A stretch of 64,000 bases of DNA from an uncultured Candidatus Poseidoniales archaeon (GTDB lineage: Archaea > Thermoplasmatota > Poseidoniia > Poseidoniales > Thalassarchaeaceae): assembly GCA_963990035.1 (NCBI GenBank), contig CAXDMJ010000002.1, positions 3,441 to 67,440 of the forward strand, given 5' to 3'. The notes below the pieces were generated by a model. The model was not told where the DNA came from, did no database searches, and saw nothing but the letters and a program-made list of their open reading frames with translations. Below are positions 1,676-25,500 of this stretch, piece by piece. The position numbers were made by a program, and so were the translations under genes. Numbering within the stretch: position 1 is the stretch's first letter; every line of letters begins with the position of its first letter.

Positions 1676-4528
1676 ATGGAATATGATATACAGCAAATAG
1701 AAGCCCATTGGCAAAAACAATGGAAAAATAATAAGATATTTTCTGTCAATATAGATCATTCAAAACCTAAATTTTACTGTCTTGAAATGTTTCCTTATCC
1801 CTCAGGTAATATGCATATGGGGCATGTTAGAAACTATTCCATTGGAGATGCAATGGCTAGATTTCAAAGATTAATGGGTAAAAATGTTCTATACCCAATG
1901 GGCTATGACTCATTTGGAATGCCTGCAGAAAATGCAGCTAAGAAAGAAGGCGGGCATCCGCATAATGTTACTGAAAGAAATATAGCAATGATTCGAACCG
2001 ATCAGGAAAGAATGGGCTATTCTTATGATTGGAGTCGCACTTTTGCTACATCCACTCCCGAATATTATCGTTGGAATCAAGAAATTTTCATTCGATTCTA
2101 TGAAGCTGGACTAGTTGAAAGACGTTTTGCTCCAGTAAATTGGTGTAATGATTGTGATACTGTACTTGCTAACGAACAAGTCAAGAATAATCGATGCTGG
2201 CGTTGCGGTTTAGAAGTAGTTCAGAAAGATATGGCACAATGGTTTTTACGTATGACTGAATATGCTGATGAACTACTTGATGATTTAGATAATATTGATT
2301 TTCCAGAGAATGTTAAAGCAATGCAACGTAACTGGATTGGGCGTTCCCATGGTGCTCATATTGATTTCCCTATAGTTGGAGAAGATACTGTAATTGGGGC
2401 ATTTACTACTCGACCAGATACTATATTTGGAGTGACATTCCTTACTTTATCGCCAGAACATCCTCTTTGTGAGTTACTTGTTACAGGAACAGAATATGAA
2501 AAAGGTTGGAAAGATCTTCGCGATGAGTGCTCAAAAATGTCAGAGTTTGAAAGAATTAATATGCTTAAAGAAAAGAAAGGAGTCCCCTTAGGAAGAGACG
2601 CAGTTAACCCCTTGAGTGGCGAAAAGGTTCCTATATTTGCAGGTAATTTTGTAGTTGCTAGTTATGGTACTGGTGCAGTAATGGCAGTACCAGGGCATGA
2701 TCAGAGAGATTATGACTTCGCTAAAAAATATGGGCTTCCAATCAAGCCTGTACTTTCTAGAACTAATGGCGCGGAAGCAATTGAAGAAAATCCAGTATTA
2801 GATTCTCTTGGATATATGACAAATTCTTCTCGGGAAGGATTTGATGGATTATTTGGAGATGATGCGAAAGATGCAGTTATCAAAATTCTTGAGTCCGAAG
2901 GAGCGGGTCATGGTACGGTTCAATATAGGTTGAAAGATTGGTTATTGAGTCGCCAGAGATTTTGGGGTACTCCAATACCAATGCTTCATTGTGAGTCCTG
3001 TGGCGTGGTTCCAGTTAAATCTCAAGATCTTCCTGTTGAGTTACCTCTAGATGTCAAATTTAGTTGGGGTGAGAGTGGCAATCCTCTTGCCTCTAGTGAT
3101 AACTTCCTATCTACAAACTGTTCACAATGTGGAGGTCCTGCAAAGCGTGAAACAGATACTATGGATACATTTTATGATTCTTCCTGGTATTTCTTAAGGT
3201 ATGGTGATTCTAATAATAAGAGTGAACCTTTTGATCGAGAAGCCATAGATTATTGGATGGATGGAGGTATTGATTTGTATATTGGTGGGATTGAGCATGC
3301 CGTCATGCATCTTCTTTATGCGAGATTTTTCACTAAAGCCATGAGGGATCTTGGCATGAATACAACAGGCGAACCGTTCGGACAACTAGTATGTCAAGGA
3401 ATGTTAAATGCCCCGGCTCCTTTCTGTATCGAATGTAATACTGAATATCATATTGATAATTTTGATGGAGACTGTCCATCTTGTAGCAAAGTTCTAGGAA
3501 CTAGGCAGGCCAAGATGAGTAAATCGCTAGGGAATACTGTAAGTCCGGGCCTTATGGTAGATAAATATGGAGCAGATACAGTTCGCCTATTCATCCTATT
3601 CGGGGCTAATCCGGAAGCAGGTATGGATTGGTCAGACAATGCGATCGTATCTAATTCTCGTCAAATGCAATCATTAATTGAGGCATTTGAATCATCTATA
3701 AGTTTTGATAATTCTCCAAAACCAATTGATAATTGGATTTTAGCTAGAATGCGTCTTAATCATTCTAAATGGAAAATAGCAATGGAAAATGTTAGTTTAC
3801 GCGAAGGTGTAATGATTAGTCACTTTGATATGCTCTCTGATTGGCATTGGTATAGACGAAGAGGTGGTTCAGATGCGAATACTGCCAAGAACTTCTTCAC
3901 TAACTGGATACCAATGCTAGCTCCAGCAACTCCTCATATTGCAGAAGAATTTTGGTCAAAGATAGGTGGACAAGAAATGGTAAGTGAACTATCTATCAAA
4001 GATCTGAAGATACATGAAGATGACCTTACTTATCTTGCAAAAGAAAGCTATCTTCGAAATTTGATAGATAGTTCAAGAAATATTAAAGGGCTCGCTCAGA
4101 GACATTCAGAGACTACAATATCTAGTTGCATAATACAAACAGCTCCTGATTGGAAAAATTCTTTAGCATCCGCTGCAATTTCTCTCAAATCATCCGATTT
4201 TGATTTTAAGAAGAACGGGCAAGATTATGTTAAATCTTTAGATATATTTAGTATTGATAAATTACGAGGTGAGATATTTCAATCATGGCAAGCATTGACA
4301 TTAGGAAATAAGAAAAATCGCGGAAAAATATATACTTGGTCGGAAGGTGAAATTTCACTCATATGTTCTAAATTCAATGAAACAGAATTAATTAATGACA
4401 ATGCTAATTTCATTGCTCAAGCACTTTCCGTTGACTCTGTAAAGTCGTATAAGGTAGGGGATGGCGATGATGTTGCAGGAAAGGCTCGAGTCTCATCTCC
4501 ATTAGATCCAGGCATTGCATTTCTCTAA
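1676..4528 (+). CDS. leuS: Leucyl-tRNA synthetase, archaeal/eukaryal type
   Basis: 950 aa. Class I motifs 'HMGHVRNYSIGD' (HIGH) and 'KMSKS', and a Zn-binding 'CNDCDT...CWRCG'. Confidence 0.95.
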   Translation: MEYDIQQIEAHWQKQWKNNKIFSVNIDHSKPKFYCLEMFPYPSGNMHMGHVRNYSIGDAMARFQRLMGKNVLYPMGYDSFGMPAENAAKKEGGHPHNVTERNIAMIRTDQERMGYSYDWSRTFATSTPEYYRWNQEIFIRFYEAGLVERRFAPVNWCNDCDTVLANEQVKNNRCWRCGLEVVQKDMAQWFLRMTEYADELLDDLDNIDFPENVKAMQRNWIGRSHGAHIDFPIVGEDTVIGAFTTRPDTIFGVTFLTLSPEHPLCELLVTGTEYEKGWKDLRDECSKMSEFERINMLKEKKGVPLGRDAVNPLSGEKVPIFAGNFVVASYGTGAVMAVPGHDQRDYDFAKKYGLPIKPVLSRTNGAEAIEENPVLDSLGYMTNSSREGFDGLFGDDAKDAVIKILESEGAGHGTVQYRLKDWLLSRQRFWGTPIPMLHCESCGVVPVKSQDLPVELPLDVKFSWGESGNPLASSDNFLSTNCSQCGGPAKRETDTMDTFYDSSWYFLRYGDSNNKSEPFDREAIDYWMDGGIDLYIGGIEHAVMHLLYARFFTKAMRDLGMNTTGEPFGQLVCQGMLNAPAPFCIECNTEYHIDNFDGDCPSCSKVLGTRQAKMSKSLGNTVSPGLMVDKYGADTVRLFILFGANPEAGMDWSDNAIVSNSRQMQSLIEAFESSISFDNSPKPIDNWILARMRLNHSKWKIAMENVSLREGVMISHFDMLSDWHWYRRRGGSDANTAKNFFTNWIPMLAPATPHIAEEFWSKIGGQEMVSELSIKDLKIHEDDLTYLAKESYLRNLIDSSRNIKGLAQRHSETTISSCIIQTAPDWKNSLASAAISLKSSDFDFKKNGQDYVKSLDIFSIDKLRGEIFQSWQALTLGNKKNRGKIYTWSEGEISLICSKFNETELINDNANFIAQALSVDSVKSYKVGDGDDVAGKARVSSPLDPGIAFL

Positions 4529-4545: not shown

Positions 4546-5649
4546 ATGACTTCACACGGTGGGTTCATGTTGCAACTTCGCTTCGAAGGTCCGTTGAGCG
4601 AACAAGATGAGGGTAAAAAGCGGCAAAAGCGTCGTTCTCGTCAGCGCCGAAAAAGTGGACAAAAGAATACTTTAGAAACTAATTCCGGTGGAGACGATGA
4701 GGCTATACAGCGTGCTCTATCGAGATTTTCAGTAGATCCCCCACCGATGGGGTTCTCTCAAGATATAGATCCACCTGCTAGGATTGTAAATGTCAAATGG
4801 AAGTTAAATGCAGTTAAAAAATCAGTTCAAACTAAAGCAAGTCCTTTAGTTTGTTCACCTGGTGAATTCGGCTTTCTTCCTGAAGAAAGAGTCCAAGAAA
4901 TTGCTGAAAAAATCAAAAAATTAGACATTACTCTCGAACAATCTCTTTCATTACGTAGCGCCTTAAATCAAGAAAAAAGTGTATATTCACATGGTCGTTT
5001 AATGAGTCGTGCCAATGAATTGAAGAGAAGATATGATAGTGGAGAAAGTGTTCTTTCACTTTCTACTCGATTTGATGCACCACCAGTAAATGTATTCAGA
5101 GCAATATTGACTGGACGAGGATGGTCTAAAAATAAAATTAAGGAGACTCTCAAGGCACCAAGTAAAATGAATGAAAAAGATCGTGAACAATTCCAATTAG
5201 CTGAATCCGCAGATCGTGTTAGTTCGGTGAATCAATCTGAAACTCAAAACGCAGCTGAAGTTTTTGAAGATATATTATGTGACTATTTTTCCTCTCTTAA
5301 TGTTCGATTCCGCCGTCAAGAAGATTTACTCGACGAACAAAAGAAATCCGAAGGCAGAGCAATAATAACTCCTGATTTATTATTATTAGATGACGTAAGA
5401 ATAAATGGGATTCCTTGTGCTTGGATTGATGCAAAACACTTCTTTGGTGCTGATTTAAGATTCCCCAAGAAAAAAACTCAGAAGCAAGTTGATAGATATG
5501 TAAATGAATATGGTCAAGGGGCTATTGTGTATAGGCATGGTTTTTGTGAAAGTTTGAAATTGAAAGGCGCAATTTTACTTGATTCCAGTCCATTAGATTT
5601 AGAACCACTAGCTACATTTCATGAGAATATCAGAGCTAATTCAGAATAA
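4546..5649 (+). CDS. Hypothetical protein with basic N-terminus and C-terminal TPD / PD-(D/E)XK nuclease-like motif
   Basis: N-terminal 'KKRQKRRSRQRRKSGQK'. The C-terminus carries 'TPDLLLLDDVRINGIPCAWIDAKHFFG', which fits the PD...(D/E)xK pattern. It sits 18 nt after leuS on the same strand. Confidence 0.5.
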   Translation: MTSHGGFMLQLRFEGPLSEQDEGKKRQKRRSRQRRKSGQKNTLETNSGGDDEAIQRALSRFSVDPPPMGFSQDIDPPARIVNVKWKLNAVKKSVQTKASPLVCSPGEFGFLPEERVQEIAEKIKKLDITLEQSLSLRSALNQEKSVYSHGRLMSRANELKRRYDSGESVLSLSTRFDAPPVNVFRAILTGRGWSKNKIKETLKAPSKMNEKDREQFQLAESADRVSSVNQSETQNAAEVFEDILCDYFSSLNVRFRRQEDLLDEQKKSEGRAIITPDLLLLDDVRINGIPCAWIDAKHFFGADLRFPKKKTQKQVDRYVNEYGQGAIVYRHGFCESLKLKGAILLDSSPLDLEPLATFHENIRANSE

Positions 5650-6636
5650 TTTTCGAATTTTTGTTTTTTGAGTTATGAAACCTATCTTATTTAGTTCATA
5701 GATTAGTTCAGATAATTCAGAATATTTTTTTTCCTCTATTCTCTTAGGTACAATAACTATACTTTCTCCTAACATGCATAAAAGTGGTTTAACTTCTAAT
5801 GATAATGAATTAATGATATTTTCAGCGTCTTTAAGTAATTCGAATCTACTTGAATCTGAAAGTAAACCACTTTCTTTAGCGAAATTTTCAGTTCTTTCTA
5901 ATAATTCGAGCCAACGTCCTTTATTCCAATCATCTTTCATTAGTTCATTCATTTGTTTCATACCCGCTTTACTGATAGATTCTTTCCATAAAGGAGCATC
6001 AATATATGATGAAGTATGTTTTCCTGAATCTTTTTTCCAAGCTAAGATAACCTCTATATCTTCAAACCAACCATCTGATTTTCCAGGGCCTTTAGTTAGT
6101 AATTCACCGCTAAATGGTGAGCCAGGTGATATTCTCCTCTCAACACCACCTGCTGCTAAAGCTGTAACATCACCCAATCCTGTTGACATGCTTCTTTCAA
6201 CTCGGTGTGAAATCGCTAAAGAACGTCTCAAACTTTCTTCATGAGGCTCCCCAATCGCCCTTTGAAATGCCATAGCCGCCGAGATAGCTCCTGCTGCAGA
6301 CATTCCAAAACCTTGAGATATCGGTAATTTTAATTTTACAGCCAAATCCCAACTATAATTATTGATATCGGTTATATCTTTAGCTAATAATTTTAGAACT
6401 TTTTCATATAATTCTGAATCCCCACTTCCTTGAATAAATTCAACATTAATACCAAAACTCCCTTCAATCCCTCTTGCAATAGCCTCAACTCCATGTTCTA
6501 GACATAGTCCAACACCCAAACTTCCCTGTTGATCTAAATCTGTAGAATCATCATTAACTGTGAAAATAAGTGTGACATGCGAACCTGACTCACCACGTCC
6601 CAATAGAACGGTCATACTAATGCGTCCAATATCCAA
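5641..6636 (-). CDS. GHMP-family kinase; substrate unknown (pantoate kinase-like or shikimate kinase-like is possible)
   Basis: 331 aa with a GHMP ATP-binding loop 'PISQGFGMSAAGAISAAMAF' and an N-terminal GHMP fold signature. Confidence 0.55.
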   Translation of the reverse strand: MDIGRISMTVLLGRGESGSHVTLIFTVNDDSTDLDQQGSLGVGLCLEHGVEAIARGIEGSFGINVEFIQGSGDSELYEKVLKLLAKDITDINNYSWDLAVKLKLPISQGFGMSAAGAISAAMAFQRAIGEPHEESLRRSLAISHRVERSMSTGLGDVTALAAGGVERRISPGSPFSGELLTKGPGKSDGWFEDIEVILAWKKDSGKHTSSYIDAPLWKESISKAGMKQMNELMKDDWNKGRWLELLERTENFAKESGLLSDSSRFELLKDAENIINSLSLEVKPLLCMLGESIVIVPKRIEEKKYSELSELIYELNKIGFITQKTKIRKLF

Positions 6637-9231: not shown

Positions 9232-10533
9232 TCATTCCTTACAAATAACATATAATTTATGGCTACCAGTGCCGCGTTCCAAATCTAAATCAATCATGAA
9301 AGATTTTGAACCCTCTACGTCACGAAGTGCTTTATCCAATCTACGTTGTAGAGTTGGATGAATTTCAGGATCTAAAGTACACCTGAGGGTTATTTTTCCA
9401 ATCTCGATTCTTGCTGCAGCACTAGCAACCTGTTCAATTGAATGTAATTCTGGAGGAGTTAGTCTATGTTGTACAACTTCTCCAGTACTGACTACAAATC
9501 CATTCACTTCTTCATGATTGTTTAGAGGCTCTGTATGAATTAACAGTGGTCTTCTCCCCTCTATTCTTAACCATGAATGCCCGCTATCTTGTTTCAACGC
9601 TTTAGTTAACCATTCTTCTTGCAAACCACTCTGGATTAAAGCAGGATCAATTATAGAGATAAAAGCTCCAAAAGGTGGAGGTTTATTCAGGCTCTGAACC
9701 TGTGAAGTCATTTTTTCTCCTTCAATTTTTCCTAGAACATTCTTTTTTCCCATTCTGATGCAACGCCTAGATTCCTTTGAAGAAATAGACCCTATCCAAA
9801 GAGATAATCGATCTACTCTTCCACCCCCCTGGCTTAGCCATTCCCAAGTTTTTGGAACACCTGGGAATATAGTTTCAACAGTTGCTTCAACCATTTCTTG
9901 TTGTTCATCCCCGAGACGTGGAGACAAATCAAGTAACACAGCAGGCCCCCTAGGTCCATTTTGCAAATATTCATTCCACGAGTTAAGGACTGATGTTAAT
10001 GATGGTTGCATTTCATCGATATGATGATTTTGTGCATCTTTGGGCCTTGCAGGATCTAAATGTAACATTGCAATGGGTGGATGCGCTCTCGTTCCAGAAT
10101 CTCTAAGGCTATTCCAATAACTAGTAATTGCTCCTTCGGCATCACTTCCATCTCCAATTATTACTCGATCTAACGTTCTTTGAATCTCTTCACCATCCGA
10201 TGTGATATGCATATTTGCTGCACATAGAACTGCTATATTTCCATCTAATTCAACTCCCAAAGCAGGTCTTTTTAATTCAGTTGCTAAAGCTATCAATTGC
10301 GCACCTGAACCAGCCGCAGCATCAAGGATAACTCCGGCGGGCAAATCAAAATTTTCGATTTCTTTCGCTCTCATTACCGAAATTGACCATGGTGTAGACA
10401 ACCTCCTCATCTCTTCAGTCATATGTAAAGCAGGCTCTCCTTTACGAGCTGATTTTGCTTCATTCCGATTACTCGCTTCTTCAACGATTTTTTCCGAAGG
10501 TATCAATGCAATATGTTTTTTATCATTAGACAA
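9232..10533 (-). CDS. Class I SAM-dependent methyltransferase; an RNA N2-guanine or Trm1-like enzyme is possible
   Basis: Motif I 'VILDAAAGSGAQLIALA' and a motif IV-like 'LHLDPARP'. The 433 aa include a C-terminal extra domain. Confidence 0.55.
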   Translation of the reverse strand: MSNDKKHIALIPSEKIVEEASNRNEAKSARKGEPALHMTEEMRRLSTPWSISVMRAKEIENFDLPAGVILDAAAGSGAQLIALATELKRPALGVELDGNIAVLCAANMHITSDGEEIQRTLDRVIIGDGSDAEGAITSYWNSLRDSGTRAHPPIAMLHLDPARPKDAQNHHIDEMQPSLTSVLNSWNEYLQNGPRGPAVLLDLSPRLGDEQQEMVEATVETIFPGVPKTWEWLSQGGGRVDRLSLWIGSISSKESRRCIRMGKKNVLGKIEGEKMTSQVQSLNKPPPFGAFISIIDPALIQSGLQEEWLTKALKQDSGHSWLRIEGRRPLLIHTEPLNNHEEVNGFVVSTGEVVQHRLTPPELHSIEQVASAAARIEIGKITLRCTLDPEIHPTLQRRLDKALRDVEGSKSFMIDLDLERGTGSHKLYVICKE

Positions 10534-10552: not shown

Positions 10553-11530
10553 TTATATCAAAGCTCTATCAATCTTAACTTCAAATCGCAACCATGTATC
10601 TTTCAATTGATGATCTTCACTATTCCCATATGCAATTGGTGGAGGTAATAATACTGTATGTGTGGTCCCTGTATCTTCTAACCATCCTCTATCTTCAGAA
10701 ATATCTAAACCAATAACTGCCCAACCAAATCCTTTGATATATCTTGAATCATCCCCTCCAGTTACTGGTAAATCCCCCTCATCTAATTGTTCTCCAGTAT
10801 CTGCATCCCATAGGATGTAATGAACTTCAATATTATTACCATCTGTAATGTGAACAGTCCTCTCATCCGGGCCTTTGAATACATGAACATCGAGATTAAC
10901 CATTGAAATTGGATTAAATTCAACATGTGTTGCTGTGATTGTAAAATCCTTTTCAGTAATATCTTCAGTCAAAGATATTTCAATAATCTCTGTACTATTT
11001 CCTTCCAAGCCATTTAACAGTAGATTTGAACTTCCTTCATTAGTGAATTCAACACCCCCTCCAACGATTTCTAGGATTAAGTCAATGGTTATATTTCCTC
11101 TATTATAAACAACAAAACTTGCTCTATCTCCATTACCTTGATGTTCCCAATCACACCTTAATTCACCAGGATACAGAAAGTTATCATCTTGATCTGCTAA
11201 GGATTCTGGCCAATCCCAGTCGCCTAATCTTGAATCACAGGTGTCGAATAACAGATCTGTTTCCCATGTCCATCTCCCATCTTCCTTTAATTCTGCTTCA
11301 GTAGCCCCGTTATCCGGAAATAAGTCTTTCAATTCATCTTGGAAAGATAAAGCAGCAATTGCTAGCCATATTGATGAAAATATAATTAATAGAACAGTAG
11401 CAAATGATAGTATCACCATAGTTCGGGGAACCGTCATTTCATTCAATCCGATAGGTATGGGGGGATGTTCAATTTCCTCCGATGTATCGGCTATCCAAGA
11501 CCTCGTCACAGCACTTTGTCGGGCCCGCAC
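10553..11530 (-). CDS. Membrane-anchored FKBP-type peptidyl-prolyl cis-trans isomerase
   Basis: An N-terminal TM helix 'MVILSFATVLLIIFSSIWLAIAAL' and a C-terminal FKBP domain ('VHYILWDADTGEQLDEGD...GFGWAVIGL...LPPPIAYG...LRFEVKI'). The start may be the internal Met (MTVPRT...). Confidence 0.7.
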   Translation of the reverse strand: MRARQSAVTRSWIADTSEEIEHPPIPIGLNEMTVPRTMVILSFATVLLIIFSSIWLAIAALSFQDELKDLFPDNGATEAELKEDGRWTWETDLLFDTCDSRLGDWDWPESLADQDDNFLYPGELRCDWEHQGNGDRASFVVYNRGNITIDLILEIVGGGVEFTNEGSSNLLLNGLEGNSTEIIEISLTEDITEKDFTITATHVEFNPISMVNLDVHVFKGPDERTVHITDGNNIEVHYILWDADTGEQLDEGDLPVTGGDDSRYIKGFGWAVIGLDISEDRGWLEDTGTTHTVLLPPPIAYGNSEDHQLKDTWLRFEVKIDRALI

Positions 11531-11620: not shown

Positions 11621-14600
11621 TCAATCTTTTACAATTTCATCTTCATTTGAAAGACCCAGCCAAGCAACTAGTCCTAATTCCGTTGCTAAAACAATTAATG
11701 AAATTAGTAATATCGTTGGTTCAAGTATTTGTGAACCTAGTAATAATAGCGATGCAACTATAGCAATTATAAGATCGAATAACCCCCAGATTCTCAACAC
11801 TCTTCTAAGCTGTAGAATTCCAATAACCCAGATAGTTGTTGATAAACTTATTAGAATAATTGGAAGATAAATAGTACTAAACACACCTGTCCATAATAGA
11901 CCAGAGTAGATTAGTAGGTGTGAATTTGTTGCTAACGTCATAGTCCATATTTCTTTTTTGAAATATACAGTTAATGCACATAATAATAGCGTCGTAATCC
12001 CAATTATTAGAGTAATTTCATCAATAGTTCCCTTTAATTGTTGAATCCAGTTAGATAAAGAAATTATTACAAATATTACTGCAGGTATCAATAATCCAAA
12101 TTCTACAGTTTGTTGATTTTTGATTGTATGGTAAATCACCAGTAGCAATGCCAACATTCCTGCCGGACCTGTGGAAATGAATACTATTGCCCACGCTCTC
12201 AATGAATTATTTGTTGTAGGCTCTCTTCCTGTCGAAATTCTTTTCATTTCGACCCATGCCATAGTAATTATCAATAATATAAGTAATACCTCTAAAATAT
12301 TCCAAGGCATAATCCACTCTAGAAGATCACCTTTGATTGGATTTACAGTAAATGGTGCAGGTAATGATTCATACAGAATAGTCCCTATCAATCGGCCGAG
12401 AAATATTGGCATTATGAACCAATCAATTGCAATTTGTACCCTGTCTATGAGATTTTTCTGATTCATTAATGAAATAATACATAAAAATAGTACAAGTAAA
12501 GTCATTATTGCCATATCAAATAGTTCAATATTACTACTTGCAGCTGCTAAATGGCCTGAGACTTGTATCAATACAACTCCGCTAATTGATATAGCAATTG
12601 GCATCTCAATTCCTAGAAAATGAGGTAATTCCAACTCAAGACCTTTTGTACGTTCTCGAGCTACAATCGCTAATATAGCGACGAAAATTCCAGTAGTTAG
12701 AAGAACTAAGTGATTTGTCCCAAAGATAAAACTAATTATTGTTGATGCACCAATGACTAATCCTAGTACTAGTAATATTATGACTGGTCTATGAGTTGCA
12801 TCAGTAAGATATAATTCTTCAATATCTTCAGTATATTCAGTCTCTCTTTTATTTTTTCTTTTATTTTTCAATTCAACAATCTTTGGATTGAATTTTTTCA
12901 CACCCCCAATCGATGTATAACTATCTTCAATATTTTGATTTTTTGCTAATTCCTTCAAAGAATTTCTTTTGGCAATACTCTTTATTTCTCTTCTTACTTC
13001 TCCATTAGCTACAAGCCAAATAGTACTAATTGCGAAAATAGTTATTGCAATTAAAATTTCATAAAATTCCCCTTTATTGTATACTAATGCAATATTTATC
13101 ACCAATAACCATAAAGATGCAAGTGCTGGATTCAAGAGTTTCTCCATTTCTTTTGCCTTTGAAAGATATACTAATATTAATGCACCAGTACAAAATAATG
13201 ATACTTTGGTAATTCCAAAACTTGGAATAATATTTGTATCAATTAACTCATTTGGATTTCTTGAAACTAAACTAATTAACATAGGTATTGCCATTAGAGA
13301 CATTCCGACCGAATACATTGATTCATCAGATCCATCATTTCTAAGGAGTAGGGTAATAGCAACAATACAATATATTAACATTAGAACTTCTTCGAGTCCA
13401 TATTGCCATTGTATTATTGTGTATCCTAAAGCAAGAGTTGCTAACATAATAGAAGATTTTCCAATTCTTTTCCTTACTAGTTCCGAAATCAAATGCAGGG
13501 CTGTGATTATGGCAAATATTCCTAAGAGTGTTAAAGCAGTAAATCCTCCAAATTTAGCCATGAAAATAATTGTAATGATTGGTAACCATAATCCAATACT
13601 CCAAAGTTGCAAGGCTCCTGAATCTCTAATAGATGCAGAAATTTCAGTTAATCCTAAGAATTTCGAGGCAAGATTCACTCCATTTTTGCCTAATTTGATA
13701 TTTACTATTGCCATTAGTAACGAAGCAATTGCTAAGTATCCAAAAAGAGGGGTTGGCTCAATTTGTATTATTGCACCAGGATCAACTCCTCCATTTGAAA
13801 CAACAAGAGTTCTAATTGTTTCTTCAACTAATTCTTCAATTATCAGCCATAACCATGGTAAGATGACTGTAATACCAGCCAAGGAAGGTGAGTTTCTTTT
13901 TACTGCTAAGAAAGCAGTTCCTATATGGACTAAAGATAATAATGAGAGAAGTAATAATCCTCCATCGCCATTAGCGCCAGAATTTACTATTTTTTCCGAA
14001 GCATCAGCTGGTATCATAATAACAAGTAATATTAAAATGACAACCGATCCAGTCCAAAGCACTCTATCTGTAACAGAATTTTGATCTCTCAGCATTACAA
14101 AACTAGTAATTAATACTCCACTTGTAGCAAAAAACTCATAAGAATCAAATGGGAGAATACTTGTAGATTCAAAAACTATTAGGGAAATTGAAAGAATCAC
14201 TCCAGAAATCAGTAAAGGTATGGCTACTCTTCTTGTTTCGACTCCTCTCACTACCAAGTAAGAGCCACCAAATGAAGATGCTAATATTGAAATTAAACCA
14301 ATAGCGTATCCTAAATCTTGTCGATTTGCACCTACAGCCATTAACGCACCAATCATTCCTAAAGATATCGAAACCCCCCATAATCCTGGTTCCCCTAAAC
14401 CTAATATTTTGAATGCTTTTGAAAACCAGTTTTCATCTTTAGCAAACTTTGCCGCCATACTCGCATTTATTCCAGTCACAATCATAATTAATATGAATAA
14501 AAGTAAGGGTGTTTCTAATTGAAGAATAGTCAATGAACCAATACTAAATCCATTGGTCAATGCATGCATTCCTACCCAAAGATTTGTTGAAGCGATACCA

Positions 14601-15349
14601 AGTGCTGCAAGGTTTCCAGATTTTCGATGTATTGCTAATCCATGAACTAAAATTGTTGCCATCAGAATCATTACAGCGATACCAATTTCACCATATCCAT
14701 AACCAGCAGCCGAACCGATTAGTAATAGAATAAGAGTTGATTGCGCTGCAATTGCATCATGTTTATGCCTATAGGAGAGGTAAACATTCAATCCAACAAG
14801 TGCTAGTAAAAGTATGCCTAGAATTTCAAAGGAAATCACTTCCCATCTTTGTAATTCTATAGCCAATCCATAAAGAATTTTCATTGAAATTATAATCCAA
14901 GTAATTCCGAGTAAATTCAAATTATTTTTAGAGACCCATAGTTCCCCTAAAGTTAATCCAAATAATGCTAAACATACTAGTAAAATAGTTGCATATAGTG
15001 GACTAAGTGCAATTCCAGATATGATGCTTATACCTGAAAATACCAGAATCATTGAAGCCATTAATATCCAATTAACTTTCTTCTCACCTTCTTTAGCAAG
15101 ATCAGTTATGATATCAATTTCTGGAGGATTACTCACTGTCCCATCTTCTTGAATAAAACCTGGTGAATTTTTATCAATTTTAGCGAATGGATCAAATATA
15201 TCTCCTAATGCTTCATCAACTTCTTTTTCCTCAAGAATAATTTTTTCTTCTACTTCATCTTGAATTAAAATATCTTCTAATTCGATAGAATCACTTATTT
15301 TAAATGCCCTTTTTCGAATGAGTTCATCATCCGAGTTGTCGGTATCCAC
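11621..15349 (-). CDS. Very large polytopic integral membrane protein of unknown function (1242 aa, >25 predicted TM helices)
   Basis: Hydrophobic segments of ~20 aa recur through the whole length. There is one charged cytoplasmic loop ('KNKRKNKRETEYTEDIEELY') and I recognise no catalytic motif. Confidence 0.7.
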   Translation of the reverse strand: MDTDNSDDELIRKRAFKISDSIELEDILIQDEVEEKIILEEKEVDEALGDIFDPFAKIDKNSPGFIQEDGTVSNPPEIDIITDLAKEGEKKVNWILMASMILVFSGISIISGIALSPLYATILLVCLALFGLTLGELWVSKNNLNLLGITWIIISMKILYGLAIELQRWEVISFEILGILLLALVGLNVYLSYRHKHDAIAAQSTLILLLIGSAAGYGYGEIGIAVMILMATILVHGLAIHRKSGNLAALGIASTNLWVGMHALTNGFSIGSLTILQLETPLLLFILIMIVTGINASMAAKFAKDENWFSKAFKILGLGEPGLWGVSISLGMIGALMAVGANRQDLGYAIGLISILASSFGGSYLVVRGVETRRVAIPLLISGVILSISLIVFESTSILPFDSYEFFATSGVLITSFVMLRDQNSVTDRVLWTGSVVILILLVIMIPADASEKIVNSGANGDGGLLLLSLLSLVHIGTAFLAVKRNSPSLAGITVILPWLWLIIEELVEETIRTLVVSNGGVDPGAIIQIEPTPLFGYLAIASLLMAIVNIKLGKNGVNLASKFLGLTEISASIRDSGALQLWSIGLWLPIITIIFMAKFGGFTALTLLGIFAIITALHLISELVRKRIGKSSIMLATLALGYTIIQWQYGLEEVLMLIYCIVAITLLLRNDGSDESMYSVGMSLMAIPMLISLVSRNPNELIDTNIIPSFGITKVSLFCTGALILVYLSKAKEMEKLLNPALASLWLLVINIALVYNKGEFYEILIAITIFAISTIWLVANGEVRREIKSIAKRNSLKELAKNQNIEDSYTSIGGVKKFNPKIVELKNKRKNKRETEYTEDIEELYLTDATHRPVIILLVLGLVIGASTIISFIFGTNHLVLLTTGIFVAILAIVARERTKGLELELPHFLGIEMPIAISISGVVLIQVSGHLAAASSNIELFDMAIMTLLVLFLCIISLMNQKNLIDRVQIAIDWFIMPIFLGRLIGTILYESLPAPFTVNPIKGDLLEWIMPWNILEVLLILLIITMAWVEMKRISTGREPTTNNSLRAWAIVFISTGPAGMLALLLVIYHTIKNQQTVEFGLLIPAVIFVIISLSNWIQQLKGTIDEITLIIGITTLLLCALTVYFKKEIWTMTLATNSHLLIYSGLLWTGVFSTIYLPIILISLSTTIWVIGILQLRRVLRIWGLFDLIIAIVASLLLLGSQILEPTILLISLIVLATELGLVAWLGLSNEDEIVKD

Positions 15350-19573: not shown

Positions 19574-22500
19574 ATGCGCTCTACATATCATAGGATATCT
19601 GGCTCGCAAAAGCAAACAGCACTTCTGCTAGTAGCATTGATGATATTGCTACCTTGGTCCGCATATTCATCTTCAGATCTGGATAATGAGGTTGATTCAA
19701 GATATGCCGTACCCGGTGCTTGGGGTGCTAGTGGAAGTAATGATACAGGTTGGATTGACTTTTCGGCAACAGGGGCAAATCCTTCGAATGGGACCTATGC
19801 TTATGGAGACTTATTCTTTGATTTCGCACCAGGTGCAGTGATTGACAATATGACTTTTGAGGTCAAGGTAAATGGTTCAATTGGAGAATGGGTTTATGAG
19901 CCCCAAATCACTTTACTAGATTCTCAAACTCCAATACTTGATTGGACTGATTTAGGAGGTTTTGGTATACAAAATTCATTTGTTGAAAATCAACCAGATG
20001 TCAATTCAGTTGGTGTACTAGATACATCGTTGCAGCCTAATTCAGTTAGTGATACTAGTTGGCAATTACCCACTGATATTTCAATAACTGATATAGTGAT
20101 GGAAGCTCTTCGACCAGCAGATCCTAAAGTTTCTTTTTCCTTATTAGATGTCGAAATATATGACAGTGCCGTCAACCCTATCGATGGAAGATTATACATT
20201 TTATTAGGCGATGACTTATTACATCTAGATGATCAAACATCTACTCGAATAATCGATGTTGAAGAAGGCATCCAAGGACGTAGTCTTGCAATAGATGAAA
20301 CGGGTAACCGATTGATGATAGGGACTTCTAATGGCACCATATTACAACGTAGCCTTTCTGATTCTTCGTCAATGGAATCTATTAATTTAGCCTTTAACGA
20401 CACAATTTCTCCAATAACTGCTGTAACAGTTGATGATTATGGGACAATTTGGGCCGTTGCTGGCTGTAATATTTTCTACACTGATGATGGTAGCTGGTCA
20501 TCTTACTATTATTGTCCGGGTGGAGCAATAAAAACCGCTACAGATGTATTAGCGTATGGAGATAATTTGTATGTATCTACGTATCAAGGATTACATTTCT
20601 TAGGCTACTCAACCTCTATGCAAGGACTAGTTTCAGTTGATAGTAATACAATTTGGAATACTGAAAATTTCCTTTCCTCAAATCAGATAAACGACCTACA
20701 AATTTTAGGAAATACTCTTTTGATAGCAACAGAAAATGGCGGTATTAATCGTCGTAATCTGGTAGCGAATTCATGGATGGCAACTTGGTCTACAAGTAAC
20801 TGGCTATCATCAAATCAAGTGGTAGGTTTAGGTGTTACAGAAGGCTGGCTATATATTTTAGCAGGAAATACTGTCCATTCTTATAATACTAATTCGTTAA
20901 TATTTAGTTCTCAAAGACAATTAAGTGTTTTTGGTCTCCAACAGAACGGTAATCAAATAATTTCCTGGCCTGACCTTGGTAAAGCTAGAAGTCCTGAATC
21001 AGGTCTAGTGCTCTTAGGAGATGGTTCAGGGGTCCTAGGGCGTTTAATTGGGGAGATAGTTGACGGTTCAGAAACATTGGTTAGTAGTCCATCTGTAACT
21101 AATATGAATCAAGTATTTTTTGTAGATGATGGAGAGTCTGGTGAAGTTTGGGTATCTGGTGGTACTGTAATAGATAGGTTTGATGAAGCGACTCAATCAT
21201 GGCTTATTCCAATAGATATTTCAGATTATGTTAGTAATCCAGTAGAAATTACTTCCTTTGTCCAAGATTCAGATGGATGGATATGGGTAGGAACTATTAA
21301 TTCTGGAATCTTAAAATTAGATAATACTGATGCTTCATACATAGGTACAGTACAAGGCCTTGCTTCTTCAGAGATTCAATCCTTAGCTCATGATCAATAT
21401 ACTGAAATTCTAGTAGTTGCCCATTATGAAGATGGCTTATCTTTCGTGAATACCTCTACTATGATATTATCTGATGTAATTACTGAACAAGATGGCTTAG
21501 ATTCTGATTTCATAAATGATGTAGTAACAAGATTTAGTATTGCTTATGTAGCCACACCAGATAACGGAGTAATGAGAATTGATTTGCAAGAATTATCCAT
21601 TTTATCCTCTTGGAAATCTCTTGGTGCGGATAATTTAGAGGCTGCCCCAATAGCAGTTGATGGAGATATAATCTACTTTGGTCTGACCGGATTTGGAATT
21701 TTATTAATTGATAGATACTCTGGTGATATAATAGATATATGGGATGCAGAGGGAAATAGTGGTTTACCGGATAATGATGTACTCGCACTTCATCTAGACT
21801 ACTTTGGCGGCCTAATAGTCGGTATGGAAGTTCCTAATTCAGGAGGTACTTCAAATCAAGCAATGGCTAGATGGGATGGTTCCAGTTGGGAATATTTTGA
21901 AACTGATGTCCCTGGTGGCAATAATGATCCGTTCAAAATTAATGATATCAAGAGCGATAATTCTGGAGTAGTTGCGGCTACCAATCGTGGAGTTTGTACT
22001 TGGACTGGTTGGACATTAATTCAAGGAAATATTTACGAGTGGGATGAATGTATTTCTCCAATGAATAACTCAGCACGATTCAGCGAGACTTTTGCTGTAG
22101 AACTAGTGTCAGGAAGTAGCCCTCTTGCTAGCGGTTCTTCTACGACAAAGATTCTGGCAGGTCATGATGATGGAGCATCGTTGATAGAGCGAGGTCAGGG
22201 AATGAATGTAATTCAAAGATGGACTGCAGGAGATGATACACAAAGAGCCAGAATAGTCAAAGTTCAGGATATATTGTATATTGGTTTTGAGAATACAGGT
22301 ATAGGAAGATACAATCTTACTAGTCAACAGTGGCTTCAAACATGGGATGGAGATCAAGGATTTATTGATGATGATGATGTAACTGTTCTTATTCCTGGTC
22401 ACATTGAAGGTACAATTTGGGCAGGTGGTGACTTTGGATTAACGCTTATTGATGTAGTTAATAATACTGTGTTAATCGATTGGAATCGAGGTTCTAATTC

Positions 22501-25500
22501 AGGAGGCCCAACCCTATCAAATTCAGCTCCAGCGGATGTTGTTATTATTGGTGATATACTGCATTATTCTACTCAAAGATCAAATTCTTGGTTCCAATCT
22601 AATGATCAAATTTATAGGATAAATTTATCCTCTAATTCTAGCGAATCTACAATTGATGCAGGCCAAGAATTAGGTTGGAATGGTAAAATACATAGCATTG
22701 GGCAAGTCTCTGAAGAGCTTTGGGTAGGAATAAGGCCTGGTCAATATTGGAATGATGGCGATGGTACAATTGCTCGTTGGAATACGACTAATGAAACATG
22801 GGAAGATCCCCTAACTACACTCGGCAGTGTCGAGAGAGTAAATGCTCAGTACCTAGGAGATTGTTTTCCAATAAATGTCTCATCTTGTGAGTTATGGGTT
22901 GCATATGGCGACAATGTAATGCGACGTTTTTCTGCACAAACAATGACTTTACTTGATGAATGGACAGATATTGGTGGGCCAATTAGAGGTATGGTCGAAT
23001 ATCAAGGAGAATATCTCTTTGCAAGTATGGAGGGGATTCTTCGATGGAATCCTAATAATGAGACATGGCTTGATTCATGGGTTGTTAATGACGGACTTCC
23101 TTCCGATGCAAATGATGAATTATACACAATGACTACTGTTGGTGATGATCTTTGGGCAGGAAGTTACAGCGGTGGAGGCGGATTTAATACAAATTCAGAA
23201 ATTATACGTAAAAATGGTACATCTGGTAATTGGACCACTTGGGAATCTGGAAGTGCCGGTATCCCTGATGGCTATATTGCAGACATTGAGGTTTGTGATG
23301 ACATAGTACACATAGCCGTTGGTGCAGTTAATTTTTGGGGGAATCAAGGTGGCATAGCTCGCTATGACTTAGCAGATCATGATTCAGATGGAACAACTGA
23401 CGAATGGATAACTTCTGTATTAACTTCTAATGGCTTAGCAGATAATGATGTTAGAGCTCTAGCTTGTGATGATGCGAATCGAATAATATATGCAGGATTC
23501 GATGAAGAAGGAGTAGGTATTGCTAGATATGACTACAACGCAGGTCTATTCTTAGACACACTTACGAATGCTGCTGATGGTATTTCTGAGGATCGAATAT
23601 TCCCTGGAGGTATGTTGCATGATGGTGACGTACTTCTTACTGCTCATCAATATGATAATGATGGTGGAATTTCTCGGATAGTAACTTCCGGAACTTCTAC
23701 TATTAATGGCCAAATTTTAAGTCCAGGGATGGATGCATGTTCGATTGTTCGAGCTCCTTCAAGTACTAGTCCAGTATATGCAATAGGTCGTTCTGGACAA
23801 ACATCTGGAGTAAATAGAGTAGATAGATTAGACTCTACTGGATTAATCGAGAGTGGATATGACGAATTAGTAGGAATTACTAGTGGGCAAATTCAAAATA
23901 TTATTTCTAATGAAACTAATGTTTGGGTGACTTCTAGTCAAAATCGCAACTCATATTATGCATCTTCTGTTCTACAAGGAGAACTAACTAACGGAACTGT
24001 TAGATGGGAATTTGGATATGATTTTGCAGGTGATATAATTAATGATATTTCTCTTGACGGAGATAAGTTATGGGTAACTACAGCAGGAAGCGGACTTTGG
24101 AAGATTGATACTATACAGCGTACAAAATCTCCAATGTCATCCGCTCTTCATTCACAAATGGATGGGATGTATTTTGATGATGACGGCACAATGTATGTTG
24201 GATTAATGGGGGAGTCAGGAACTGCTGCAGGGTACCAATCCTTTGATACTAATACCGAGAATTGGGGACCAGGCAGTTTGATAGCGGGATTACCAAATAA
24301 TATTGTAAGAGATTTCTTAGAACTTGATTCTCATCTTTTAATTGCTACTCATGGTGGAATTGGATCGTATAATCTTTCAACTTTGAGTTTCGATAACCCA
24401 ATAACATCTTACAATGGACTTCCATCTCCAATCATTGACCACTTAATGATTCTAGATAACCCTATACAAGGTAATGGCACTATATTAGCAGGTGGTTTGG
24501 CAGGATTAACAATTCTTGAAGATGAAACTTTCACAGTGCTGAATACATTAGATTTTTCTGATGGTTTGATTGGCGATAGAGTTTCAGGACTTTTCTTCGC
24601 TGATTCAGTAACTAGGCAGGTACTAGTCGGTAACTCTACAATAGTTCAATATCATAATGCCTCAGTATTCATTTCTCATAATGGTCAAGGTGTAACACGT
24701 CCAGGAGTTGCAGCATGGGATATTGATTCTGATATGCAGAATGGAACTTACTTTATCGATTCGATTCCAAGTAATAATGTTCTGGCTATAGCTGCTGATA
24801 GTTGGGGTGTCCATATTGCCACTGATATTTCGCCACTTGTCCACTGGAATGGTACTATGATGCAGATGGAAACGGGGACAAGTCCCTTCAACCTGTTGTC
24901 ATGGCCACCATCTCAAATGGTTTCAGATGGTAATTATTTGGCTCTAATTAGTCCAGCGGGTATAGATTTACTAGAAGCTTCTAAAACTCATTCAGTCGTT
25001 AAATCCGAAATAATATCCGGATCTTCTAATGCATTTATTGATTCTAATTCTCTATATGTTGTGGGTAACGATGGTTTACACCATTACAGTCCGATCGTAA
25101 GTTTGAATGAGCAACCTCGTGAATATCAGAGGCGAGCCGAGCCTTTGTTTGCTATATTTGGAGGGGAGCAGTGGGATTTAACCGAAACAACTCATCCGGG
25201 GATGTCATCAATATTGATAGACTCTACTGATCCATTATTAATTCCTAATAGTCCATTGTCTTTACCTGGAGTTTTACCCATGTATAATGGAGCCATGACA
25301 ATTTCTAGTCCAGTTAATGGCGCATCAGTATGGGCTCAGTCTGTTTCATTAAATTATACTGGTTCATGGGATTTAGCAGGGCGAAACCCTGCGATTGAAG
25401 CAGGATTCCAAACAGCAATTTCTAATGTCGGACCAGGTTCTAATTCAGTTGTATTGAATGTTCAAATGCAGTCACCTCAGAATGGTACGATTAGTGTAAG

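Follow-up and report, generated by a model that had tools for sequence, protein, structure and literature searches.

The 64,000-nucleotide stretch analysed here, which belongs to an uncultured Candidatus Poseidoniales archaeon (contig CAXDMJ010000002.1) and which we call the window, carries an ATG-to-stop open reading frame (ORF) of 367 codons plus stop at 4546-5649 of its forward strand, just behind the leucyl-tRNA synthetase gene leuS. We are virtually certain that the product is a member of the CDIN1/C15orf41 (TPD) family, and our analysis makes it probable, on balance, that the protein would work as a Mg2+-dependent nuclease on RNA 3' ends in duplexes without Codanin-1, the partner of the human enzyme. 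The protein as such is already known: near-identical proteins are annotated in the databases, and the occurrence of the family in Euryarchaeota has been published. What is new here is descriptive, namely that the gene is a syntenic core gene of Poseidoniales, that its product bears a lineage-specific, Arg-rich disordered tail, and that its nearest relatives outside the archaea are from marine protists, not from giant viruses. Residue numbers count from M1 of the listed ORF unless they are marked M8.

Membership in the TPD family, which the first-pass annotation had proposed from a C-terminal motif, was examined with Pfam. PF14811 (TPD) matched residues 214-341 with 74 bits against a gathering cut-off of 27 (E=1.4e-20), covering profile positions 7-131 of 138. 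TPD was the sole Pfam family at E <= 10, the scan returning neither Hjc (PF01870) nor any other resolvase domain; an NCBIfam scan gave no meaningful match, and a single-sequence search of the PDB gave nothing at E <= 10. The nearest of 458 homologues (89-93% identity) come from Candidatus Thalassarchaeaceae or Marine Group II (MGII) Euryarchaeota, and the closest is already named 'TPD domain-containing protein [Candidatus Thalassarchaeaceae archaeon]'. An exhaustive HMMER search across 1.84 billion representatives yielded 1194 relatives with E <= 1e-3, of which 98 reached E <= 1e-30, with alignments that span residues ~80-350 and hence both domains of the protein, not the TPD domain alone. Many of these relatives are 260-310 aa long.

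Direct comparison with human CDIN1 by BLASTP gave 29% identity over the C-terminal 84 residues, placing TPD on TPD and WIDAK on WIESK. Because this alignment is confined to the C-terminal 84 residues, homology of the N-domain to the human protein is transitive: human CDIN1 can be aligned, from about residue 20 to its end, with those representatives that match both domains of the window protein. The suspected kinship with CDIN1/C15orf41 is borne out at full length and beyond the C-terminal motif. The human sequence used is not a database copy and is 5 residues short somewhere after position 237; when it was checked against a published account (PMC13463051), 19 of 19 named residues stood at the stated positions (R22, R26, Y94, R101, R126, N146, D155, A160, E166, D171, L178, D196, E214, K216, D231, Q232, V18, C223 and W237). 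An earlier survey located C15orf41 orthologues in Euryarchaeota and in no other archaeal phylum, with a human-archaeal E-value (1e-34) better than the human-choanoflagellate one (1e-12) (PMC7092493, 2020). A literature search on PF14811/TPD-domain proteins returned no study of archaeal or viral members.

The PD-(D/E)XK core that had been noticed in the C-terminal half is complete: D277 and D295-x-K297 are in place as described, and an upstream glutamate, E241, joins them. Conservation was followed in an alignment of 128 diverse representatives together with the window protein and human CDIN1 (130 sequences). E241, equivalent to human E166, is E in 130/130; the TPD motif holds D277 (human D196) in 128/129, P in 128/129 and T in 123/129; K297 (human K216) is K in 128/128, and W293 (human W212) is W in 128/128. 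Position 295, equivalent to human E214, is always acidic, with D in 113 sequences and E in 15. Absence of the D, E and K residues from orthologues, which would have spoken against the assignment, was looked for, and they proved invariant or exchanged between D and E only in the 130 homologues. The catalytic columns were invariant again in three independent alignments (A1, A3 and A4). Beyond the tetrad, W293, Q314 (human Q232), Y318 (human Y236), G323 and G325 are essentially invariant, D223 (human D147) is also conserved, and the N-domain contributes S135, R137, Y163, P180 and R185 (human R101) as residues conserved across the family. For human CDIN1, a Mg2+ site made up of E166, D196, E214 and K216 has been proposed, and a D196A/E214A double mutant has lost all activity (PMC13463051). 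Judged from the alignments, the catalytic constellation is intact and under strong purifying selection, and we predict with good confidence that the archaeal protein is a catalytically active nuclease.

An AlphaFold2 model built on 64 sequences reached a mean predicted local distance difference test score (pLDDT) of 87; from about residue 70 onward (M8 numbering), almost all 10-residue blocks score 94 or more. Residues 1-70 (M8 numbering) are disordered, at pLDDT 40-65. The ordered remainder consists of two parts, a basic, all-helical N-domain and an acidic C-domain with the canonical element order of a PD-(D/E)XK nuclease: helix(E)-strand-helix-strand(D)-strand(DxK)-helix(Q,Y)-strand-strand. 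In M8 numbering, E234 lies in helix 223-243, D270 stands at the start of strand 271-279, and D288/K290 end strand 282-290, which is followed by helix 298-315 and strand 318-322. Modelled alone, the C-domain had a pLDDT of 93. This layout is shared with the human protein, where a helical, helix-turn-helix (HTH)-like N-domain likewise precedes the PD-(D/E)XK domain and for which two HTH domains plus PD-(D/E)XK were described (PMC7261414).

Foldseek comparison of the whole model with the PDB retrieved PspGI, BsaWI, BbvCI, Bax1, Hef and XPF (best E 0.005), and the C-domain retrieved DdmD, BstEII, PspGI, Bax1, BbvCI, a bunyavirus cap-snatching endonuclease, Hef and AgeI (best E 0.016); searching the C-domain alone left the matches non-significant. 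The PDB contained no CDIN1 chain, and a search of it with the family profile reached only phage T7 endonuclease I, at a marginal E=0.018, on the catalytic E and the 'TPDFLL' string. The type II restriction enzymes among the best fold matches (PspGI, BsaWI, BstEII and BbvCI) and T7 endonuclease I have in common with the TPD protein the series E...(T)PD...(D/E)xK on an alpha-beta-beta-beta-alpha-beta core; the similarity is marginal, however, and the TPD protein has neither the dimeric resolvase architecture nor a methyltransferase partner. The comparators suggested by the first-pass annotation (Hjc/Hef, branched DNA) are in line with the 2013 prediction for C15orf41; Pfam gave no Hjc-type domain, fold matches to Hef and Bax1 are weak, and the sole positive biochemistry on the family indicates RNA and not branched DNA (PMC13463051; negative results in PMC7261414). 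For human CDIN1, there is no experimental structure, and distant structural homology to type II restriction enzymes has been reported (PMC13463051), with which the weak PDB matches of the archaeal model agree.

The N-terminus of the ORF needs a correction. The placement just behind leuS and the motif strings quoted from the translation were right, but the protein probably starts at M8, at 4567, and not at 4546, which would make it 360 aa long. The M8 start is favoured by the orthologues, whose lengths are 359-361 aa and whose first residue falls at the M8-equivalent position ('MLQLRFEGPLSEQ...'). The stop codon of the 950-aa LeuS is separated from the listed ATG by 17 nt. The basic N-terminus seen before is real: the tract EGKKRQKRRSRQRRKSGQKN has 11 K/R in 20 residues (net +10). 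No 20-mer in the window's 75 open frames of >= 100 aa is more basic, and the first place is shared. The basic N-terminus is also conserved among orthologues. These were collected in a GTDB scan of one genome per species with a close set (A2) as query alignment, which found a relative of the gene in at least 420 species genomes; tail and synteny counts refer to the best 80 of the 420 loci, all of them from MGIIb (Poseidoniales). A tract of at least 7 K/R in 12 residues, typically RRRGRRRRRRR, occurs in 73/80 orthologous loci, and a start codon lies upstream of it in 71 of those 73.

The MGIIb extension follows a common layout, with a short hydrophobic start, 'LSE(D/E)', the Arg-rich tract, a variable linker and ERALxRFxxxPxPMG. 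It does not align with the family members of 260-310 aa, and giant-virus-type proteins lack it; several probable protist homologues bear Lys-rich N-terminal extensions. The disordered tail of about 70 residues is specific to Marine Group II proteins.

In the reading that we favour, the disordered Arg/Lys tail, the basic helical domain that follows it and the acidic PD-(D/E)XK domain would together make up a nuclease orthologous to CDIN1. E241, D277 and D295 would serve as ligands of the catalytic Mg2+, with K297 activating or stabilising the water that attacks. The substrate, an RNA 3' end in a duplex, would lie in the cleft that the basic N-domain forms with the catalytic domain, and the basic tail might give the extra non-specific grip on nucleic acid that Codanin-1 gives the human enzyme. 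The model for the substrate is the 2026 study of human CDIN1, in which the enzyme, an RNA nuclease dependent on a free 3' end, preferred double-stranded RNA or the RNA strand of RNA:DNA hybrids and cut no DNA; Codanin-1 stimulates it, its residues R872 and K879 providing most of the substrate affinity (PMC13463051). Codanin-1 is reported only from animals and a few protists (PMC7092493) and would not be expected in these archaea, and the archaeal protein presumably acts alone for this reason. Whether RNA rather than DNA would be the substrate we regard as nearly an even call, leaning slightly to the negative, and the tail as a substitute for Codanin-1 seems doubtful to us.

Several points weigh against this reading. 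Identity to human CDIN1 is only ~25-29%, so that the substrate preference may not transfer, and human CDIN1 alone needed >250 nM enzyme for a single cut (PMC13463051). The 2020 study of C15orf41 saw no nuclease activity on many DNA and RNA substrates (PMC7261414). All PDB fold matches are distant (E >= 0.005, TM score <= 0.40), although those ranked at the top are mostly PD-(D/E)XK proteins. A non-specific nucleic-acid-binding role of the Arg/Lys-rich tract is purely what we infer. N146, which matters most for Codanin-1 binding in the human protein, corresponds to A222 of the archaeal one; as read from the alignment, this would fit independence of Codanin-1 and does not prove it. Together with the additional tail of ~70 residues and the D in place of E in the (D/E)xK motif, this exchange distinguishes the archaeal protein from its human counterpart.

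The gene is embedded in a conserved neighbourhood. In the window, it is preceded by genes for an OsmC-like protein, a metallo-beta-lactamase (MBL)-fold hydrolase and LeuS, and followed on the opposite strand by a pantoate-kinase-like GHMP kinase, RNA polymerase subunit D (RpoD), S11, S4 and S13. The order MBL(-) LeuS(+) TPD(+) GHMP(-) RpoD(-) S11(-) S4(-) S13(-) is kept in the 80 loci, with exceptions at contig ends and downstream in L075. LeuS lies upstream in all of the 80 loci with enough contig (all but L043) and also in L081 and L091. The GHMP kinase is the most constant neighbour, adjoining the TPD gene in 79/80 loci and likewise in the loci of the orthologues of 50-52% identity. These two come from divergent MGII: in P0122 (50% identity) the order is LeuS, an inserted 180-aa ORF (L081:1338-1880), TPD and convergent GHMP, and in P0309 (52% identity) it is LeuS, an inserted 916-aa ORF (L091:3144-5894, with a weak match to thrombospondin type 3 repeats), TPD, convergent GHMP, RpoD, S11, S4 and S13. 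How far leuS stands from the TPD gene differs between lineages, at 17-38 nt in the clade of the window and an apparent ~320-370 nt in many other MGIIb genomes.

All 80 loci, together with a further three from more distant genomes, have the gene at this fixed position. Since the divergent P0122 and P0309 keep the arrangement, the TPD gene was already at its present locus in the common ancestor of the sampled Poseidoniales. Orthologue identity falls with lineage distance, from 68-93% within MGIIb to 50-52% in divergent MGII, and the GC content of the gene (33-37%) equals that of its neighbours. The gene is a vertically inherited core gene, neither an island nor a restriction system. One locus of the scan, L032 (PBEM01000001.1), is labelled 'Chloroflexota bacterium'; it has the MGII gene order, a layout identical to that of L030 (labelled Methanobacteriota) and a TPD protein of 75% identity, and we take it, almost certainly, for a mis-binned archaeal contig. 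The TPD gene (+) and the GHMP kinase gene (-) share 9 nt at their 3' ends (5641-5649). This overlap leaves no room for separate terminators, and every Poseidoniales locus examined retains the convergent arrangement.

Four other readings of the protein were weighed against the RNA 3'-end nuclease. It could be a structure-specific DNA endonuclease, either a Holliday-junction resolvase or a flap or fork nuclease, in archaeal recombination or repair, the function first predicted for C15orf41. The only PDB entry within reach of the family profile, T7 endonuclease I, is a junction-resolving enzyme, if at a marginal score; Bax1, Hef and XPF are among the weak fold matches; the 2013 prediction for C15orf41, as quoted in a later paper (via PMC7261414), saw similarity to archaeal Hjc; and the human CDIN1-Codanin-1 complex binds duplex DNA (PMC13463051). 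However, human CDIN1 cut no DNA substrate, Holliday junctions included, in two independent studies (PMC13463051, PMC7261414), the similarity to junction and flap nucleases is no better than that to restriction enzymes, and neither the Pfam result, TPD without an Hjc or resolvase domain, nor the build of a 360-aa two-domain protein with a tail resembles the compact dimeric resolvases of ~130-140 aa. We consider this reading unlikely. Still less probable is a nuclease for the processing or turnover of a specific stable RNA, for instance in tRNA or rRNA maturation, tied to the surrounding leuS, rpoD and S11/S4/S13 genes. RNA is indeed the reported substrate of the CDIN1 family (PMC13463051), the arginine-rich tract would resemble RNA-binding peptides, the neighbourhood is conserved in all Poseidoniales loci examined, and in the window the TPD gene is co-directional with leuS and 17-38 nt downstream of it. 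The ribosomal and RpoD genes, though, lie on the opposite strand, giant-virus and eukaryotic homologues sit in unrelated contexts, and co-transcription with leuS is not conserved, as the inserted ORFs of 180 aa (L081) and 916 aa (L091) and the apparent gaps of ~320-370 nt attest. Functional coupling with leuS was considered as a candidate in its own right and rejected, ORFs being inserted between the two genes in other lineages.

The evidence contradicts the two remaining readings. That the protein is catalytically dead and retains the fold only as a nucleic-acid-binding or scaffold protein would agree with the basic tail and N-domain and with the 2020 study, in which the human protein showed no activity (PMC7261414). 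However, archaea, protists and giant viruses, at an overall identity of 25-40%, show next to no variation in the tetrad, W293, Q314, Y318, G323 and G325, which is expected only where catalysis is under selection, and the catalytic double mutation kills the activity of the human enzyme (PMC13463051); we find this reading very improbable. A solitary nuclease of defence, of restriction type or of a mobile element is one we can hardly credit at all. Type II restriction enzymes and the plasmid-defence protein DdmD do give the best PDB fold matches, and the TPD family is abundant in giant viruses, but the gene occupies the same locus in every Poseidoniales genome examined, has the GC content of its flanks and tracks lineage distance in its identity. 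PADLOC returned no defence-system match, and Pfam analysis of the neighbours found no methyltransferase, toxin or integrase adjoining the gene. The earlier remark that no restriction-modification or toxin-antitoxin partner is present holds, the immediate neighbours being leuS and the GHMP kinase gene.

Outside the archaea, relatives fall into two sets. Among predicted viral structures, the best match is a 303-aa entry aligned at full length (E=2.5e-28, TM score 0.84, 30% identity), and named matches include 'TPD domain-containing protein [Powai lake megavirus]' and 'CDAN1-interacting nuclease 1 [Acanthamoeba polyphaga mimivirus]'. In the branch of 260-310-aa proteins, the named members are called 'CDAN1-interacting nuclease 1' and derive from environmental Megaviridae samples and from metagenomes of seawater, where contigs reach 675 kb; their contexts are dense ORFs with U-box/ankyrin, SNF2, RING and similar domains. 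These giant-virus proteins share 28-41% sequence identity, the same invariant residues and a full-length fold match with the window protein, whereas their length of 260-310 aa, the absence of a basic tail and their placement in clades apart from the archaeal-plus-protist group set them off. The homologues from marine protists (P0123 and P0132/P0295) are the closest non-archaeal relatives, P0123 having 50% identity compared with 52% for the divergent archaeal P0309. They differ in being eukaryotic genes with longer extensions that are Lys- and not Arg-rich, sometimes with a zinc finger. P0123 (contig BDIP01004891.1, GCA_003568945.1; L089:90-1347) is 50% identical over 264 aligned positions, and its gene, at 52% GC, is split into at least 4 exons that use three reading frames. 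Archaeal contamination of a eukaryotic assembly was considered for P0123 and rejected on account of these exons, frames and GC content. P0295 lies on a gene-sparse contig beside a BRO1-domain gene.

Neighbour-joining (distance) trees with 100 bootstraps, their root placed arbitrarily on the human sequence, set all MGII and protist-like sequences apart from the giant-virus-type and human ones (93/100). The clade with long N-termini received 92/100 and the group of MGIIb with P0121 100/100; monophyly of MGII received 27/100 and MGII plus P0123 47/100. The grouping of archaeal with protist sequences hints at an ancient gene transfer. Its direction is not established, because the trees are distance trees with an arbitrary human root; transfer from a eukaryote to an archaeon is the more parsimonious direction because the eukaryotic distribution of the family is wide and the archaeal one narrow. 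As a tentative history, to which we would not commit ourselves, CDIN1 among archaea may be restricted to Poseidoniales, date back to their common ancestor and derive from one ancient exchange with marine protists, after which the protein would have stood alone, independent of Codanin-1, and kept or reinvented a basic tail, similar to a nuclear-localisation signal, for gripping nucleic acid; a later export from MGIIb would have led to the RING fusion of P0121 in a virus or a eukaryote.

P0121 itself (L084:2140-3828; 562 aa; Logan SRR24302422 contig, 42 kb) consists of a cysteine-rich N-terminus of ~265 residues fused to a CDIN1 core. The N-terminus contains a RING-like CPLC...CGHSFCNDC pattern, the core is 62-64% identical to the window protein, and a segment, 'GEFG..PERIQEI', is partially duplicated internally. 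The contig has 45-50% GC, carries mostly ORFs without a Pfam match along with a RING-H2 protein, and shows no synteny with MGII genomes, all of which suggests an MGIIb gene captured by a virus or a eukaryote.

Mutations in human CDIN1 cause a rare disease, congenital dyserythropoietic anaemia type I. The human protein is poorly soluble, so that the 2026 study had to introduce three stabilising mutations, and until that year there was dispute over its activity. An archaeal orthologue that is compact, has the catalytic residues of the human protein and presumably does not depend on Codanin-1 would be a convenient model for the structure of CDIN1 and for its ancestral, partner-free activity. The gene also belongs to the conserved core of an archaeal group that ranks among the most abundant in the surface ocean, and its kinship with protist genes adds a further candidate case of gene exchange between archaea and eukaryotes. 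The practical value is modest, and current understanding is not overturned. Coordinates of the gene, its parts and its two direct neighbours are collected in Table 1.

Table 1. The TPD gene, its parts and its direct neighbours in window coordinates
Feature	Position	Strand	Basis
TPD-domain protein ORF, Poseidoniales orthologue of CDIN1/C15orf41	4546..5649	+	ORF listing; Pfam TPD; homologues
M8 codon, probable start	4567..4569	+	orthologue lengths and start positions
Disordered N-terminal extension of ~70 aa, specific to Marine Group II proteins	4567..4776	+	pLDDT 40-65
Arg/Lys-rich tract EGKKRQKRRSRQRRKSGQKN	4609..4668	+	composition; orthologue N-termini
Conserved linker motif E-A-I-Q-R-A-L-S-R-F-S-V-D-P-P-P-M-G	4699..4752	+	common to Marine Group II orthologues
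Basic all-helical N-domain, isoelectric point (pI) 10.1, homologous to CDIN1 N-domain	4783..5157	+	model; column conservation
C-terminal PD-(D/E)XK nuclease domain, acidic, pI 5.2	5158..5646	+	Pfam TPD; domain model
Pfam TPD match within C-domain	5185-5568	+	Pfam scan
E241 codon, equivalent to human CDIN1 E166 (metal ligand)	5266..5268	+	alignment
T275-P276-D277 codons, 'TPD' motif; D277 equivalent to human D196	5368..5376	+	alignment
D295-A296-K297 codons, (D/E)-x-K motif, equivalent to human E214/K216; W293 precedes	5428..5436	+	alignment
leuS (leucyl-tRNA synthetase)	1676..4528	+	Pfam
Convergent GHMP-family kinase, pantoate-kinase-like	5641..6636	-	Pfam GHMP_kinases_N; NCBIfam pantoate kinase below cut-off

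Further along the window, three consecutive ORFs of 433, 325 and 1242 aa (9232-10533, 10553-11530 and 11621-15349, all on the minus strand) have no Pfam family. The 433-aa protein adjoins S13 in all MGII loci fetched and gave sub-threshold, methyltransferase-like PADLOC matches around a 'DAAAGSGAQ' motif that resembles an S-adenosylmethionine-binding site. A 2863-aa ORF at 19574-28165 (+), with a sub-threshold match to the beta-propeller family PorZ_N (21.8 bits against a cut-off of 27), may encode a giant secreted or surface protein. In the locus L091, from 12804-13071 onward, the large subunit of DNA polymerase II (PolC/DP2), encoded beside the conserved gene block in this MGII lineage, contains an intein, with PF14890 lying between two PolC_DP2_cat matches.

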